Source of the DNA: an uncultured beta proteobacterium
Lineage (GTDB): Bacteria; Pseudomonadota; Gammaproteobacteria; Burkholderiales; SG8-41
DNA length: 64,000 nt
Assembly (NCBI GenBank): GCA_963699525.1
Contig: CAVOUI010000012.1
Coordinates: 47,839 to 111,838, forward strand
Reading direction: 5' to 3'
Position numbers and translations under genes: made by a program. The first letter of the stretch is position 1. Every line of letters begins with the position of its first letter. Shown here one piece after another: positions 10,551-35,240 of this stretch. Under the pieces are notes generated by a model. The model was not told the DNA's origin, made no database searches, and saw nothing but the letters and a program-made list of their open reading frames with translations.

Positions 10551-10725
10551 GGACCCGGCCGCGGGGTCAGACCCCCTTGATGCGGTAGTGGCAGCCCGCC
10601 GCGGACTCGAACCGCGAACCTTCCGCTTCAGAGGCGGACGCTCTACCAATTGCGCTAGCGGGCAGCAGGTTTGCCGGACCGGGGTCCGGTCTCGTTCGAC
10701 CGTGCGCTGTCGTGGGAAGTTCGAA
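10551..10725. repeat. Direct repeat copy 2 (tRNA-Gln plus leader and trailer)
   Basis: ~90% identical to 671-846. Confidence 0.8.
10589..10664 (-). tRNA. tRNA-Gln (anticodon CTG), second copy
   Basis: Identical to the 710-785 gene. Confidence 0.8.
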
Positions 10726-31410: not shown

Positions 31411-31427
31411 TCAGGGCGCAGTAGGGC

Positions 31428-32573
31428 TCATCGGATCTTCACCAGATCCTTGAGCACCGCGTCGAGGCCGCCGAATACCGAGATCTTGTCGATCTTCTCG
31501 GTGACCTTCTCCAGCGTCTCCAGCTCCTTCAGCCGCAGCGCGGTCGGGTTGTCTTCCATCACTCGCGCGGTGTTCAGCAGCGAGCGGGTCGCAGCGGTTT
31601 CTTCGCGACGGCGAATGACGTTCGCCAGCGCGATCTTCTCCGCCTCCACCACCTTCGCCAGGATCACCTTCATTTCACCCGGCAGGATGATGTCCTTTAC
31701 GCCGACCGAGTCGACTTCCAGGCCGAAGCCTTCGACACGGCGCTTGATGTGCTCTGCCACGACCTGGTCGACCTGGACCTTGTTCTCCAGCAGCTCGTCC
31801 AGGGTGCGGGTGCCGATCGCAGCGCGCAGGCCGAACTGGAGCTCCTTGTACAGGTAGTCCACCGGCTTGGCCTGCTTGGCGAAGGCCTCACGCACGTCGG
31901 TCACGCGGTAGCCTGCGTTCAGGTTCACGCGCAGCGGCACCTTGTCCTTGGTCAGGATCTCCTGGCCCGCCACTTCGATTACCTGGAGGCGCAGATCGAC
32001 GAACTCGACGCGCACGTCGCGGCCGAAGCGGAAGTACGCCCGCAGGCCGGCATCCAGCACGTCGACCAGCTTGCCGTCGACGTAGAGGACGCCCGCGTGG
32101 AACTGCGGCACCTGCACGCCGTACACGCCCTCGGCGCCCTTCACCAGCGCCTTGAAGCCGGTGCCGGTGAACGCGACGAGCTGCGGGACGAGCTTGGCGC
32201 CGACCTCGAAGTCCTTCTCGATGTCGATGCGCTCGAAGCGCAGGTCGATGTAGCCCTTGAAGTACAGGCGGCGGGTGTTCGGCGCCAGCACTTCGGCGAG
32301 CACGCCGTTCTCGAAGCGCAGGCCGACTTCCGCCGGGCCCAGCGCCACGACGTGGAACTCGCGCTCCACGATCGCCGGCTCGGCCTTCACCAGGTACTCC
32401 GCCAGGCGGTGCTCGAAACGCGGCTCGGCGAGCGCGAACTTCTCCGCGGTCAGCCGCTGCAGCGGGTCGAAGCGCAGGTGCTCGCCCGGGCCCAGGATCT
32501 CGACGAAGTCGCCGTGGTCGAACAGGAGCGCGCGTTCGTCCTTCTTCACATGAAACTTCTGAAACAGCATCAT
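31428..32573 (-). CDS. SPFH/band-7 domain protein (slipin-like)
   Basis: 381 aa, SPFH core, C-terminal coiled coil. Confidence 0.8.
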   Translation of the reverse strand: MMLFQKFHVKKDERALLFDHGDFVEILGPGEHLRFDPLQRLTAEKFALAEPRFEHRLAEYLVKAEPAIVEREFHVVALGPAEVGLRFENGVLAEVLAPNTRRLYFKGYIDLRFERIDIEKDFEVGAKLVPQLVAFTGTGFKALVKGAEGVYGVQVPQFHAGVLYVDGKLVDVLDAGLRAYFRFGRDVRVEFVDLRLQVIEVAGQEILTKDKVPLRVNLNAGYRVTDVREAFAKQAKPVDYLYKELQFGLRAAIGTRTLDELLENKVQVDQVVAEHIKRRVEGFGLEVDSVGVKDIILPGEMKVILAKVVEAEKIALANVIRRREETAATRSLLNTARVMEDNPTALRLKELETLEKVTEKIDKISVFGGLDAVLKDLVKIR

Positions 32574-32982
32574 TTTCGTTCTCCTTTCCTTGTCTAAAAC
32601 ACATCGTTGCGATCAAGCGCAGCACGTCGGCTTCGCGCTCGGTCAGGCGTACGGTCTGGTCCACGACATCCTCCTTCACCACTACCGCTGTTCACTCCGC
32701 TTTTCCTTTCGCCCACCGCCTCGTCAACAAAAACGGGAATCCGGCCTCCCGAACGCCCGGCGGGCTCCGCCGCGCGCGCGAGGGAAGACAGCCGCGCCTT
32801 GCGCCCCGCTCATCCCGCCCGTTGCTCCGGACGGGGTGCGCCGGCTCGCTCGGCTGTTGCCGCTTCGCCCGCGAGCGCCGCACGGCGCTCTCGGTCTGGC
32901 GCCCGGTGCCTGCACGGCGGTGCTCTGCCGCGCATGCTGAAGCCGGCCCCGGTACTACGGTTAAAGGCACTTGCGATGCCCT

Positions 32983-33052
32983 TAGTTGGAGCGGGAGTCG
33001 AACCCGCGACTCGTCGATTACAAGTCGACTGCTCTACCTACTGAGCTATCCA
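32983..33052 (-). tRNA. tRNA-Thr(TGT)-like remnant: the D, anticodon and T arms are intact but the 5' acceptor strand is missing or unpaired (pseudo-tRNA)
   Basis: Anticodon arm GTCGA-CTTGTAA-TCGAC, T arm GCGGG-TTCGACT-CCCGC; it starts directly after the CCA of the next tRNA; acceptor pairing is only 4 of 7. Confidence 0.4.
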
Positions 33053-33125
33053 TGGCGACGGATATGGGAGTCGAACCCATGACCTCGGTCGTCCGGACCG
33101 CGCTCTACCGCTGAGCTAATCCGTC
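33053..33125 (-). tRNA. tRNA-like gene with a 5-nt anticodon loop (CGGAC); identity undetermined
   Basis: Perfect acceptor GACGGAT/ATCCGTC, D arm GCTC/GAGC, T arm ATGGG-TTCGACT-CCCAT, G73 and CCA; the anticodon stem CGGTC/GACCG closes a 5-nt loop. Confidence 0.5.
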
Positions 33126-33256
33126 CAACATCCGCCGCTCCCGCGCCGCGGTACACGCCAAGCCGATGTTTCAGGCCGAGCGCGCCAGGGAGGACTCACG
33201 AGCCTCGCCCGCTGCGATGTTTCGCGTTCACGACGAATTCTGTGCAGGGATGTGGC

Positions 33257-33323
33257 TGGGGTGATCCGCCGGATTCGCACCGGCACTCCCGGAGTCACGG
33301 TCCGGTGTGCTGCTGTTACACCA
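33257..33323 (-). tRNA. Degenerate tRNA-His-like remnant
   Basis: Anticodon arm CCGGA-CCGTGAC-TCCGG (GTG), T arm GCCGG-TGCGAAT-CCGGC, 3' GGATCAC-C-CCA; the D arm and 5' acceptor are degraded. Confidence 0.35.
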
Positions 33324-33337
33324 GGATCTCCGTTGTC

Positions 33338-33413
33338 TGGCTGTCCAGGCAGGCTTCGAACCTGCACGCCTCGCGTTAACAGCGCGCCGCTCTACCGGTT
33401 GAGCTACTGGACA
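33338..33413 (-). tRNA. tRNA-Asn (GTT)
   Basis: Canonical cloverleaf, loop CTGTTAA, CCA encoded. Confidence 0.85.
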
Positions 33414-33418
33414 AAAGC

Positions 33419-33493
33419 TGGTACCGGCCCACGGAATTGAACCGCGCGTCGCCCGCTTATCGGGCGGGTGCTCTGCCGTTGAGCTAGACCGGC
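33419..33493 (-). tRNA. tRNA-Ile (GAT) with C33 in place of the universal U33
   Basis: Anticodon loop CCGATAA; acceptor has two G-U pairs; T loop TTCAATT. Confidence 0.7.
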
Positions 33494-33498
33494 GAAAC

Positions 33499-33573
33499 GG
33501 GCGAGGGCGCCTGGATTCGAACCAGGGACATCCGGCTTCAGAGGCCGGCGTTCTACCGCTGAACTACGCCCCG
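33499..33573 (-). tRNA. tRNA-Gln (CTG), distinct in sequence from the 710 and 10589 copies; no CCA encoded (CCC follows)
   Basis: Anticodon arm CCGGC-CTCTGAA-GCCGG; T arm CCTGG-TTCGAAT-CCAGG; 1:72 is a C-C mismatch. Confidence 0.7.
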
Positions 33574-33577
33574 ATAC

Positions 33578-33653
33578 TGGCGCTTCCCCTCCGTTACGAT
33601 CGGAGCTCTCCGGCTCTTCAGGCCGGCGCTGTCACCAGATCAGCTAGAGAAGC
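33578..33653 (-). tRNA. tRNA-Phe (GAA) with a T-loop ATCGTAA (A54/T58 swapped relative to the canonical T54/A58)
   Basis: 76 nt; loop CTGAAGA; otherwise a regular cloverleaf with CCA. Confidence 0.7.
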
Positions 33654-33659
33654 CTGTGT

Positions 33660-33738
33660 TGGTGCCCCGGGCGTCGATTCGAACGCGCGTCCTCCTGCGT
33701 ACTAGGCAGGCGCTCTTCCGGCTGAGCTACGCGGGGCG
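33660..33738 (-). tRNA. Defective tRNA-like gene with anticodon AGT (Thr-like): one extra nucleotide before the D stem and an unpaired T stem
   Basis: Anticodon arm CCTGC-CTAGTAC-GCAGG; the T-loop TTCGAAT has non-complementary flanks GCGCG/CGACG. Confidence 0.4.
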
Positions 33739-33815
33739 TGGTGGTTCCGCTTCGATTCGAACGAAGGATTCCCGGGTTATGAGCCCGGTGCTTTGAGCCG
33801 CTAAGCTACGGAACC
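33739..33815 (-). tRNA. tRNA-Met (CAT), elongator type (G1-C72 paired)
   Basis: Perfect cloverleaf GGTTCCG...CGGAACC-A-CCA. Confidence 0.9.
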
Positions 33816-33822
33816 TCGTGTC

Positions 33823-33898
33823 TGGTACTCGGTGATGGTCTCGAACCATCGACCTCCTGTTTGTAAGACAGGCGCTCTGCCTTCTGAGCTAACCGAGC
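33823..33898 (-). tRNA. tRNA-Val (TAC)
   Basis: Loop CTTACAA; canonical arms; CCA. Confidence 0.9.
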
Positions 33899-33899
33899 A

Positions 33900-34121
33900 T
33901 GGTCGGCGCGGCAGGAGTTGAACCTGGCCCGCGGAGGGCGGAGCAGTGCCTGCGCCCCTTGGCGTAGGTGCGACCCCGTAGCGGGCCGAGCGCGCCGGTT
34001 TCATTCCGCGGGCCTATGCACGCCTTTGCGGTCGCATCCCCATGAATGGGGCCCCTGCTCCACGCTCCGGCGCGCCTTTCTGATTAAGAGTCAGCTACTC
34101 TGCCTGTTGAGTTACGCGCCG
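33900..34121 (-). tRNA. Split or interrupted tRNA-Lys (CTT): the 5' part (34075-34121: acceptor, D arm, anticodon arm) and the 3' part (33900-33927: T arm, acceptor, ACCA) are separated by ~147 bp of non-tRNA sequence
   Basis: 5' acceptor CGGCGCG pairs 7 of 7 with 3' CGCGCCG; anticodon arm GCTGA-CTCTTAA-TCAGA; T arm CCAGG-TTCAACT-CCTGC; the insert starts CGCGCCGG (a copy of the 3' acceptor) and contains the hairpin CCCCATTCATGGGG. Confidence 0.5.
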
Positions 34122-34129
34122 TGAAATCG

Positions 34130-34205
34130 TGGCGACGCTGGCGGGAGTCGAACCCGCGGCTTCTCGCTCGACAGGCGAGCACTCTGGCCGCTGAGTTACA
34201 GCGTC
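34130..34205 (-). tRNA. tRNA-Asp (GTC)
   Basis: Loop CTGTCGA, G73, CCA. Confidence 0.9.
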
Positions 34206-34214
34206 GTTCGAAAA

Positions 34215-34293
34215 TGGCGCCCCCGGAAGGATTTGAACCCTCGACCTCGCGGGCCGTGACCGCGCGCTCTGCGATTCCCTGAGCTACGGGGGC
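34215..34293 (-). tRNA. tRNA-Arg (ACG) with an 11-nt D loop and an atypical anticodon loop TCACGGC (C33)
   Basis: Perfect acceptor GCCCCCG/CGGGGGC; anticodon stem CGCGG/CCGCG. Confidence 0.65.
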
Positions 34294-34299
34294 AATTGT

Positions 34300-34376
34300 T
34301 GGTCTCGCCGGCAGGATTCGAACCTGCGGCCTCCCCGTCCCGAACGGGGCGCGCTGACCTGCTGCGCTACAGCGAG
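34300..34376 (-). tRNA. tRNA-Pro (CGG)
   Basis: Loop TTCGGGA, A73, CCA. Confidence 0.85.
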
Positions 34377-34379
34377 AAA

Positions 34380-34451
34380 TGTTCCCGGCCGGAATTGAAC
34401 CGGCATCTGCGGCTTGAAAGGCCGCCGTCCTCACCATTAGACGAAGGGAAC
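34380..34451 (-). tRNA. tRNA-Glu (TTC), no CCA encoded
   Basis: Glu-type 3-bp D stem GTC/GAC, loop CTTTCAA, T arm GCCGG-TTCAATT-CCGGC. Confidence 0.8.
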
Positions 34452-34455
34452 CCTT

Positions 34456-34529
34456 TGGGGCGGGCAGCGAGGATCGAACTCGCATCTCGACGCTGGCAAC
34501 GTCGCGCTCTACCGTTGAGCCATGTCCGC
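34456..34529 (-). tRNA. tRNA-Gly (GCC)
   Basis: Loop TTGCCAG, T arm GCGAG-TTCGATC-CTCGC, CCA; one A-C mismatch in the acceptor. Confidence 0.8.
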
Positions 34530-34625
34530 CCGGTATTGGCCACATCCCAAGTTGTAAAAGAACATTCCGCTTCATCCGGTCGCTATGCCGGAGCGGGACG
34601 GAAGCGCTTTGCTCCCGTCGAAATC

Positions 34626-34702
34626 TGGTGCCCCACCCGGGATTCGAACCCGGAGATCCATGTTTCTGAAACATGCGCGTATGCCGATTCCGCCAGCGGG
34701 GC
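34626..34702 (-). tRNA. tRNA-Leu (CAG)-like gene with a 5-nt variable loop (no long variable arm) but a Leu-type D arm
   Basis: TG-GCG-GAATCGGCATA-CGC D arm as in bacterial tRNA-Leu; anticodon arm CATGT-TTCAGAA-ACATG; variable GATCT; A73; CCA. Confidence 0.55.
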
Positions 34703-34704
34703 TT

Positions 34705-34749
34705 AAAAAACAAAAAGCCCGGGGACCTTTCGGTGCAACCCGGGCTTTT
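34705..34749 (-). terminator. GC hairpin plus a T-run (bidirectional A/T flanks) lying immediately 5' of the tRNA array
   Basis: AGCCCGGG-N15-CCCGGGCT with TTTTTGTTTTTT on the minus strand. Confidence 0.6.
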
Positions 34750-34993
34750 GGAAGAAGCGGACGTGGTACGCGTCACGCGTCTCCGGCAGCACGGGTCGTA
34801 CGGGCGCCTTCCTGCCGCGATTGCGCAAGCAACCGTGGGTCGTCGGACGCCTGGGGGTGCACAGGCACATGCCCCAGCGAGGCCCTTTGGGTAAGGCAAT
34901 CTGTCAATCCTGCAAGTCGCATTTCAATCCCATCCGTGTTGAAGTTCGTTCGTGCCCGTGTAACGCACTGCTACCAAACGCGTTGACACCCTG

Positions 34994-35030
34994 AAAACAA
35001 AAAGCCCGGAGCGCTTGCGCGGTCCGGGCC
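34994..35030 (-). terminator. Rho-independent terminator downstream of the TctC gene 35241-36227
   Basis: GCCCGGA-N12-TCCGGGC with TTTTTGTTTTC on the minus strand. Confidence 0.65.
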
Positions 35031-35240
35031 TTCGGAAAGCGGGTCTTCCGACCTCAATAGTCTCCCGAAGGCACGCGCGCGGGCCCCTCGCCGTTCTCAA
35101 GGCGATCGAGCGCCGGCTGAAAGGCGCTCGCTAGCAGGCCTGGCTGCCGTATTCCGCAAATGTTCGCTCGTAATCTCATGTTTCGCTCGATTGCAAGGGC
35201 GCGCATTCTGGACCGCTGCGTGCTTGAAGTCAAGACTTTT

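Follow-up and report, generated by a model that had tools for sequence, protein, structure and literature searches.

The stretch analyzed here, called the window, comprises 64,000 nucleotides (nt) of contig CAVOUI010000012.1 (positions 47,839 to 111,838) from an uncultured beta proteobacterium of the Burkholderiales (SG8-41), and it contains an array of tRNA genes whose first member is a tRNA-Leu with the anticodon CAG and a short variable loop (Table 1). The array is dense and lies on one strand: 16 ARAGORN calls and 2 elements found only by Rfam are packed into ~1.7 kb. After the tRNA-Leu it continues with Gly(GCC), Glu(TTC), Pro(CGG), Arg(ACG), Asp(GTC), an interrupted Lys(CTT), Val(TAC), Met(CAT), Thr(AGT), Phe(GAA), Gln(CTG), Ile(GAT), Asn(GTT), His(GTG), an aberrant 'Ser(gga)' and a terminal Thr(TGT)-like element.

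Table 1. Features of the window around the short-armed tRNA-Leu gene (position 1 is the first nucleotide of the window).
Feature	Position	Strand	Evidence
Type I (short variable loop) tRNA-Leu, CAG	34626..34702	minus	ARAGORN, Rfam, sequence, leuV alignment, covariation, clade
Rest of the tRNA array, all of class I length	32987..34625	minus	ARAGORN, Rfam
~146-nt insertion at the variable-loop/T-stem junction of tRNA-Lys(CTT)	33927..34072	minus	alignment, blastn break points
SPFH/Band 7 protein gene	31428..32573	minus	Pfam PF01145
GC-rich hairpin (GCCCGGG...CCCGGGC) followed by a T run	34705..34745	minus	terminator-like scan
Small open reading frame (ORF), 49 codons, MRLAGLTD...AAGDA-stop; candidate leader peptide	34773..34922	minus	translation; ends 27 nt before the hairpin
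Second upstream copy of small ORF, hairpin and T run	34994..35179	minus	translation, sequence
tRNA-Leu/tRNA-Gly spacer with two hairpins and the conserved motif GTTCTTTTACAACTTGGGATGTGGCC	34530..34625	minus	alignment, clade flanks

Body and cloverleaf of the tRNA-Leu gene

ARAGORN calls the gene tRNA-Leu(cag), 77 nt, with exactly the boundaries of Table 1, and Rfam RF00005 scores 55.5 bits on the same interval (gathering score 29, E=1.4e-10). The DNA reads GCCCCGC TG GCG GAATCGGCATA CGC G CATGT TTCAGAA ACATG GATCT CCGGG TTCGAAT CCCGG GTGGGGC A CCA, which as RNA gives GCCCCGC/UG/GCG-GAAUCGGCAUA-CGC/G/CAUGU-UUCAGAA-ACAUG/GAUCU/CCGGG-UUCGAAU-CCCGG/GUGGGGC/A/CCA. Read from the sequence, 4/4 stems are paired with one G-U, and the D arm has a 3-bp stem and an 11-nt loop. 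The CAG anticodon lies within a 7-nt loop with U33 present, the discriminator is A73 and the CCA end is encoded. The T loop is canonical (U54 U55 C56 A58) and the tertiary core is complete, with U8-A14, the A15-U48 Levitt pair, G18G19 and A20a; the core columns are invariant in the family alignment and in the alignment with E. coli leuV, both described below. C2-G71 is also present. The variable region GATCT, which was pointed out in the initial annotation of this DNA, is read directly as a 5-nt loop, so that the gene has no class II long variable arm. The minimum free energy (MFE) fold of the single sequence is not a cloverleaf (z = -2.0), as is common with a 3-bp D stem, and it was not used as evidence.

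As reference for the alignment we fetched E. coli leuV directly, an 87-nt class II tRNA-Leu(CAG). From U8 to G26 the two genes are identical at 18/20 positions, and they differ in length solely at the variable hairpin, by a clean gap of 10 nt. The D arm was also compared with those of 1231 ARAGORN-called tRNAs from the fetched loci, with a score out of 20. Long-arm tRNA-Leu is the nearest isotype (median 10/20, maximum 16), against a median of at most 6/20 for every other isotype. The statement of the initial annotation that the D arm and A73 are typical of tRNA-Leu is borne out by these two comparisons, and ARAGORN, Rfam, the leuV alignment and the D-arm scores agree with it that this is a tRNA-Leu(CAG)-like gene of class I architecture. 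The body is leucine-type and the architecture is class I; by body and anticodon the gene is a tRNA-Leu, yet it is not a class II tRNA. It had also been claimed that every other class II tRNA is absent from the array. This stands in so far as the 15 further ARAGORN calls are all 72-79 nt long, and needs the qualification that ARAGORN labels one of them, of 73 nt, 'tRNA-Ser(gga)'; it is an aberrant element of class I length and not a true tRNA-Ser.

Relatives in genomes, metagenomes and phages

The short loop might have come about in sequencing or assembly, through the collapse of ~10 nt from a normal variable arm. All that speaks for such an artefact is the prior expectation of a class II architecture for a bacterial tRNA-Leu. 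Species-representative genomes were scanned with the acceptor and D arm of the window gene as query, which gave 8 loci in metagenome-assembled genomes (MAGs) of Burkholderiales, 'Enterobacteriaceae' and Bryobacterales, all of them 77-nt tRNA-Leu genes within tRNA arrays. In the metagenome scan the acceptor, D and T arms were fixed and 18-46 nt were allowed between them, which leaves room in the variable region for anything between 0 and 28 additional bases. Exactly 23 nt, and with them a 5-nt variable loop, were found in 27/27 metagenome contigs. The same loop length was found in 5 genome contigs, which makes 32 independently assembled genome and metagenome contigs overall, and the architecture is shared by >50 distinct viral sequences and by finished phage genomes. 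Because the independent assemblies agree, the collapsed arm, which the initial annotation had named as its possible refutation, is excluded, and we leave an artefact hardly any probability.

The close clade of the window gene (n=33) offers the cleaner test of selection, since the search left the anticodon arm and the variable loop free. Six versions of the anticodon stem occur in this clade and all are perfectly paired (CGCGU/ACGCG, CGUGU/ACACG, CAUGU/ACAUG, CAUGC/GCAUG, CUGGU/ACCAG and CCCGC/GCGGG). The anticodon loop is CUCAGAA in 32/33 members and UUCAGAA in the window alone, and the 12 distinct variable loops are all 5 nt long and all have a final U. [quoted passage not shown] The pattern matches the type I tRNA-Leu(CAA) of Streptomyces coelicolor, in which the length of the 5-nt loop matters and not the identity of its bases (PMC6614811).

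Viral contigs were searched with a pattern in which the T loop follows the leucine D-arm motif at the distance of a class I tRNA, and at least 120 contigs matched. Among the matches listed there are 127 D-arm matches, of which 71 (51 unique) are near-perfect cloverleaves with variable loops of 5-6 nt; 48 others were left out, as they form no cloverleaf and belong to another element. Within this listed set a leucine anticodon is present in 68/71 cloverleaves, over both codon boxes (TAG 43, CAA 12, GAG 5, CAG 3, AAG 3, TAA 2), and A73 in 69/71. Anticodons confined almost wholly to leucine, across both boxes, would be expected if it is the body and not the anticodon that specifies leucine, to a leucyl-tRNA synthetase (LeuRS) that is blind to the anticodon.

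For covariation, 41 distinct family members were placed in a gap-free alignment. The covariation score is 0.873, against 0.207 ± 0.015 for shuffles and <=0.20 for slid registers, and changes on both sides are found at 16/20 pairs. The cloverleaf is 99.6% paired, an inflated percentage, since the search pattern prescribed the D arm and a sequence had to form a cloverleaf to be retained; the diversity of compensated pairs is free of this inflation. U48 is invariant across the 41 members. The window gene carries the motif of the lineage, UGGCGGAAU.GG.A.ACGC, with a 5-6 nt variable loop ending in U48, A73, a leucine anticodon and a location in a tRNA cluster, and its acceptor stem is identical to those on three viral contigs (L003, L042 and L110). 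We hold with very high confidence that it is a genuine member of a type I tRNA-Leu lineage.

The short arm is peculiar to tRNA-Leu. In the viral loci listed, a length of 83 nt or more is found for 74/76 tRNA-Ser genes, and of 80 nt or more for nearly all tRNA-Tyr genes; among the tRNA-Leu genes 86 are short and 28 long, and of those not picked by the search pattern 14 are short and 26 long. The three viral contigs just named carry the order Tyr(87 nt)-Leu(77)-Leu(77)-Ser(92)-Ser(90), and in L133, a fuller version of the window array, an 87-nt tRNA-Tyr adjoins the 77-nt tRNA-Leu. Seryl-tRNA synthetase (SerRS) and bacterial tyrosyl-tRNA synthetase make use of the long arm.

Two side observations were made on the viral contigs. 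Some loci (L002, L007, L014 and ~45 more, many from sample 3300045988) contain a recurrent element with a tRNA-Leu-like D arm and a T arm, TGGCGGAATGGGTAAACGC TAATAGCAGATAG ... GGTTCGAATCC, without acceptor or anticodon stems. In another contig (L035, IMGVR_UViG_3300047496_000204) a leucine-type body with the same D arm, A73 and a 5-nt variable loop carries the anticodon TCA in the loop CATCAAG. From its sequence, this could possibly be an opal suppressor or recoding tRNA with leucine identity.

Phages were searched with the family consensus as query, blastn with the 77-nt gene (phages at E <= 1e-3, and E. coli genomes) being too insensitive. In the cultured Salmonella phage S124 (T5-like) and Escherichia phage 4MG, short-loop genes are annotated as tRNA-Leu, and we checked their sequences. 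They resemble the window gene in architecture, in the D-arm motif (GGAATTGG.ATAC), in A73 and in a 5-nt loop ending in U, and they sit in tRNA clusters beside long-arm tRNA-Ser, as the window gene likewise sits in a cluster. They differ in their TAG anticodon, their AT-richer body and their location in a lytic phage genome rather than a chromosome. Many finished phage genomes annotate such short-loop genes simply as tRNA-Leu. A further likeness is found in Mycobacterium mucogenicum/phocaicum, where a short-loop tRNA-Leu(TAG) in a horizontally acquired tRNA cluster coexists with a normal long-arm chromosomal isoacceptor (PMC6582537). There the host is actinobacterial and the anticodon is TAG, and the gene was noted in passing, with no analysis of identity elements or distribution (PMC6582537). 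By sequence comparison, the lineage is widespread in phages and in horizontally transferred tRNA arrays.

The transferred array and its putative control region

The closest relatives of the window array come from soil metagenomes (L135, L137, L147 and L158) and have in common the gene order Leu-Gly-Glu-Ala-Pro-Arg-Asp-Lys-Val-Met-Thr-Phe-Gln-Ile-Asn-His-odd. The array occurs in Burkholderiales MAGs, with related forms in Bryobacterales and on viral contigs. At the nucleotide level the homology to related contigs is confined to 31424-34763, where it stops at 31424, and a 50-nt block at 34980-35029, with an identity of 86-88% (86% for the array). This span contains the SPFH gene, a LuxR/GerE remnant, the array and the upstream leader region. 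The SPFH gene is linked to the array at all related loci, and its product is 84% identical in amino acids to that of the array-linked gene in L125. The flanks of the module in the window are ordinary chromosomal genes of a bacterium with 66% GC (PBP1, Crp, a TctC/Bug receptor, DUF1330 and 1-Cys peroxiredoxin), and the genes upstream of the array differ among loci (TctC, DUF4864, CreD, a histidine kinase, DAO). Searching the phage and plasmid collections with the whole array by blastn gave only matches at the level of single tRNAs.

The array is also supernumerary. Three tRNA-Gln(CTG) genes lie on the minus strand of the window, two identical chromosomal copies (710-785 and 10589-10664) and the array copy (33499-33574), which duplicates them, is highly divergent from them and has no encoded CCA. 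CUG is the most used leucine codon of the window (46% of leucine codons). By the codon usage of the window, the anticodons of the array match the most used codon of each amino acid and therefore would add redundancy and not capacity for rare codons. In being dense, on one strand, supernumerary, horizontally spread and redundant with the housekeeping set, the array resembles the known L-arrays or tRNA array units (PMC8421152, PMC4758250, PMC5966550). It differs in size, with ~17-18 genes (17-19 in its relatives) under the cut-off of at least 20 genes of Tran et al. (2016), and in its company, as it is joined by the SPFH gene and the small-ORF/terminator units where Anabaena has TrcR repeats or a homing endonuclease. 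The comparison of loci shows an array that is foreign to the chromosome, a horizontally spread 'L-array' in the sense of PMC8421152, and by the same comparison the window copy is a somewhat decayed member of its lineage.

The arrays of the relatives also travel with a small LuxR/GerE helix-turn-helix (HTH) gene and an AAA ATPase (L121 679-3224; L125 2248-4760), of which the ATPase is absent from the window. A conserved palindrome, TCAACGC...GCGTTA, lies upstream of the leader ORF and could be an operator for the LuxR/GerE HTH gene. When the linked SPFH, AAA and LuxR-like proteins were run through PADLOC, only matches at the level of P-loop and HTH were returned and no defence system was assigned; a reading of the locus as a defence island was dropped on this result.

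Several members of the array are unusual in themselves. The insertion in the tRNA-Lys occurs only once in the window and matches no Rfam family; its predicted fold is a closed multibranch domain (MFE -86 kcal/mol, z = -2.9). A structured element, intron-like or mobile, is one possible reading of it, and a simple disruption is the other. In a related array (L127, 3340-3435) a tRNA-Pro(CGG) has a ~20-nt insertion after the anticodon loop, which from its sequence would be another sign that members of the array tolerate insertions. The 73-nt 'tRNA-Ser(gga)' (33053-33125, minus strand) has a shortened anticodon loop, CGGUC-CGGAC-GACCG. This odd form is kept in L158, L147 and L133, and a normal tRNA-Met(CAT) stands in its place in L121 and L125. 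The terminal tRNA-like element (32987-33052, minus strand) scores 56 bits in Rfam with no ARAGORN call, its acceptor stem pairs poorly, and its 5' end and the CCA of the gene before it overlap; its anticodon is TGT in the window, GAT in L121, L125 and L156, and ATG in L158. The tRNA-Thr(AGT) (33660-33737, minus strand) carries A34, which is unusual in bacteria outside tRNA-Arg(ACG), and is kept in L158 and L133.

Upstream of the tRNA-Leu, the hairpin of Table 1 (~-18.6 kcal/mol) is kept in most relatives and looks like a terminator or attenuator. The ORF of the second upstream copy (35179-35054) has 41 codons, MRLRAN...SGDY-stop, and its hairpin (35029-35004) is 92% conserved in relatives. The two tandem ORFs, of 41 and 49 codons, both begin with MRL and both end with GD-x-stop, and nearly all relatives have small ORFs with good ribosome-binding sites at the same position. 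RNAfold predicts that the terminator's 5' arm has an alternative pairing partner in the 3' end of the small ORF, though a GC-rich RNA always finds partners. We hypothesize that the small-ORF/terminator units could serve a leader-peptide attenuation of the tRNA array, which would fit the report that L-arrays are silent until translation is impaired (PMC8421152).

Downstream of the tRNA-Leu, the motif GTTCTTTTACAACTTGGGATGTGGCC (34536-34562, minus strand) is conserved in the clade, is flanked by hairpins and contains a -35-like TTTACA, which is TTGACA in L133 and L156. An internal promoter is one role it could have, a processing signal another. A sigma-54 promoter was rejected on inspection as the GG/GC spacing is off, and under sigma-70 the -35-like hexamer was seen with no convincing -10.

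Probable charging by LeuRS and the possible meaning of the short arm

In E. coli, leucine identity resides in A73, A15-U48, G18G19, A20a and the tertiary interactions of the D and T arms, it is independent of the anticodon and of the long arm, variants without the arm are still charged, and C2-G71 is an antideterminant against SerRS (PMC9976931). The window tRNA-Leu has every leucine determinant listed in that paper. The engineered minimal E. coli tRNA-Leu, in which A73 and the D/T tertiary core suffice for leucylation, resembles it in this respect and differs in being a set of laboratory constructs, some of them also without the anticodon arm (PMC9976931). Because such engineered arm-less tRNA-Leu is leucylated, a mechanistic basis can be proposed for charging by the LeuRS of the host, and this is most likely how the window tRNA-Leu would be charged. 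Animal mitochondrial tRNA-Leu shares the class I length and has A73 and A14 as determinants; it is organellar and relaxed in structure, has a dedicated mitochondrial LeuRS and lacks the bacterial leucine-type D arm.

Based on these data we can suggest how the gene arose and works. The lineage has lost the 10-nt variable hairpin and kept its leucine-type body, and the array of ~17 genes, together with the SPFH gene, has inserted into a high-GC chromosome, which to judge by the relatives is probably one of the Burkholderiales. The tRNA-Leu would be transcribed with the array, possibly under the control of the upstream small-ORF/terminator units, and would be matured by RNase P and 3' trimming. 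Host LeuRS, for which the arm is dispensable in E. coli, would then charge it and it would read CUG, as a redundant or back-up supply and not as new decoding capacity. We consider the full account, with charging by host LeuRS and decoding of CUG, to be probable.

Besides the selection that inflates the pairing percentage, several observations count against this account. In vitro, the type I tRNA-Leu(CAA) of S. coelicolor was left uncharged by E. coli LeuRS (PMC6614811), and therefore the acceptance of a type I substrate by a proteobacterial LeuRS cannot be taken for granted. The window gene has A37, where CUN-reading bacterial tRNA-Leu normally has G37 (m1G), e.g. E. coli leuV, and U32, where its 32 relatives have C32. 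Neither leuS nor the tRNA-Leu genes of the host are found within the 64-kb window. A strong terminator-like hairpin that ends 2 nt before the tRNA-Leu may keep basal expression low. The array copy itself is decayed: tRNA-Ala(TGC) is lost, tRNA-Lys(CTT) (33903-34121, minus strand) is interrupted where all related arrays have an intact gene of 76 nt, and the LuxR/GerE HTH gene is truncated to a remnant at ~32600-32682 (minus strand), LTEREADVLRLIA.

Together with the aberrant terminal tRNA-like genes, this decay can also be read as the mark of a non-functional relic that has little or no transcription and is unused in translation. The hairpin upstream, the U32 that is unique to the window copy and the report that L-arrays are mostly silent (PMC8421152) favor such a relic. 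Yet the tRNA-Leu itself is intact, with all stems paired and the tertiary positions retained, and U32 is compatible with function. In the 33-member clade the stems co-vary and the loop keeps its length while its sequence drifts, which is purifying selection at the level of the lineage. A relic is in our view decidedly unlikely.

The S. coelicolor gene is the nearest precedent for a bacterial cytoplasmic tRNA-Leu with a 5-nt loop, likened to ours by architecture. It is charged by LeuRS, and it could not be deleted and appears indispensable (Fan et al., 2019, PMC6614811). As type I is defined in S. coelicolor, such a tRNA-Leu exists side by side with type II tRNA-Leu, and one LeuRS serves the two (PMC6614811). 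It differs in being a chromosomal gene and the sole reader of UUG, whereas the window gene would be a redundant reader of CUG in a transferred array. Also, the S. coelicolor LeuRS ignores A73 and needs a special leucine-specific domain (PMC6614811). If the failure of the E. coli enzyme on this different type I tRNA-Leu is taken together with the non-canonical architecture, another synthetase might charge the window tRNA-Leu, or its role might be outside translation (a decoy, a regulator or an integration target), and its position at the edge of a conserved module could suggest attachment. The leucine anticodons and A73 of nearly all listed viral cloverleaves (68/71 and 69/71) are hard to explain unless the body specifies leucine, and we know of no other E. 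coli-type synthetase for which CAG is an identity anticodon. The tRNA-Leu as integration site was rejected, as conservation continues ~300 nt further upstream and no integrase lies nearby. We regard this group of alternatives as very improbable.

Another hypothesis accepts a functional tRNA-Leu and holds that the loss of the arm and the A37 A38 loop are adaptive, evading tRNA nucleases and toxins, of the host or of competitors, that recognize host tRNA-Leu, so that the array would be a nuclease-resistant back-up. The short-arm architecture is concentrated in phages and mobile arrays, and only tRNA-Leu has lost the arm while Ser and Tyr retain it. At positions 37-38 the anticodon loop of the window gene departs from that of E. 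coli leuV, and for the tRNA-Leu(TAG) of Shigella phage Sf14 a table lists the same change from host to phage (PMC12482277). Loop changes were proposed to let phage tRNAs escape anticodon nucleases (PMC10264068), an anti-defence role of tRNA arrays is under discussion (PMC12803027), and eukaryotic Schlafen nucleases are reported to select type II tRNAs. On the other side, PADLOC detected no defence genes next to the array, and to our knowledge no bacterial nuclease needs the long arm of tRNA-Leu. The bacterial Schlafen that was studied cuts the anticodon arm, with no reported type II specificity (PMC13056530). A simpler cause is also enough: since LeuRS does not need the arm, its loss is tolerated. 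We see evasion as unlikely. A wider version, in which loss of the arm gives the whole lineage immunity to nucleases or toxins directed at class II tRNA-Leu and two tandem leader-peptide attenuators silence the back-up array, whose first product would be the short-armed tRNA-Leu, until translation falters, appears more doubtful still.

A 2023 review gives the long arm of tRNA-Leu as universal except in animal mitochondria (PMC9976931), and our targeted full-text literature searches found no paper describing the short-arm tRNA-Leu pattern across phages. Type I tRNA-Leu is already documented in S. coelicolor and in the mycobacterial tRNA cluster. The window gene is unusual by textbook standards but not unique, and the exceptional status implied by the initial annotation gives way to an architecture that tRNA-Leu genes of phages and mobile tRNA arrays commonly have. 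The lineage may be broader than is generally appreciated. A short-armed tRNA-Leu is routine in phage clusters and transferred arrays of Proteobacteria, Acidobacteria, Actinobacteria and cyanophages, in which tRNA-Ser and tRNA-Tyr keep their arms. It raises the question of whether the loss of the arm helps to evade immunity that targets tRNAs. The short arm can also serve as a simple sequence marker for foreign tRNA-Leu genes, and the lineage as a whole would be a natural experiment on a bacterial LeuRS recognition that is independent of the arm.

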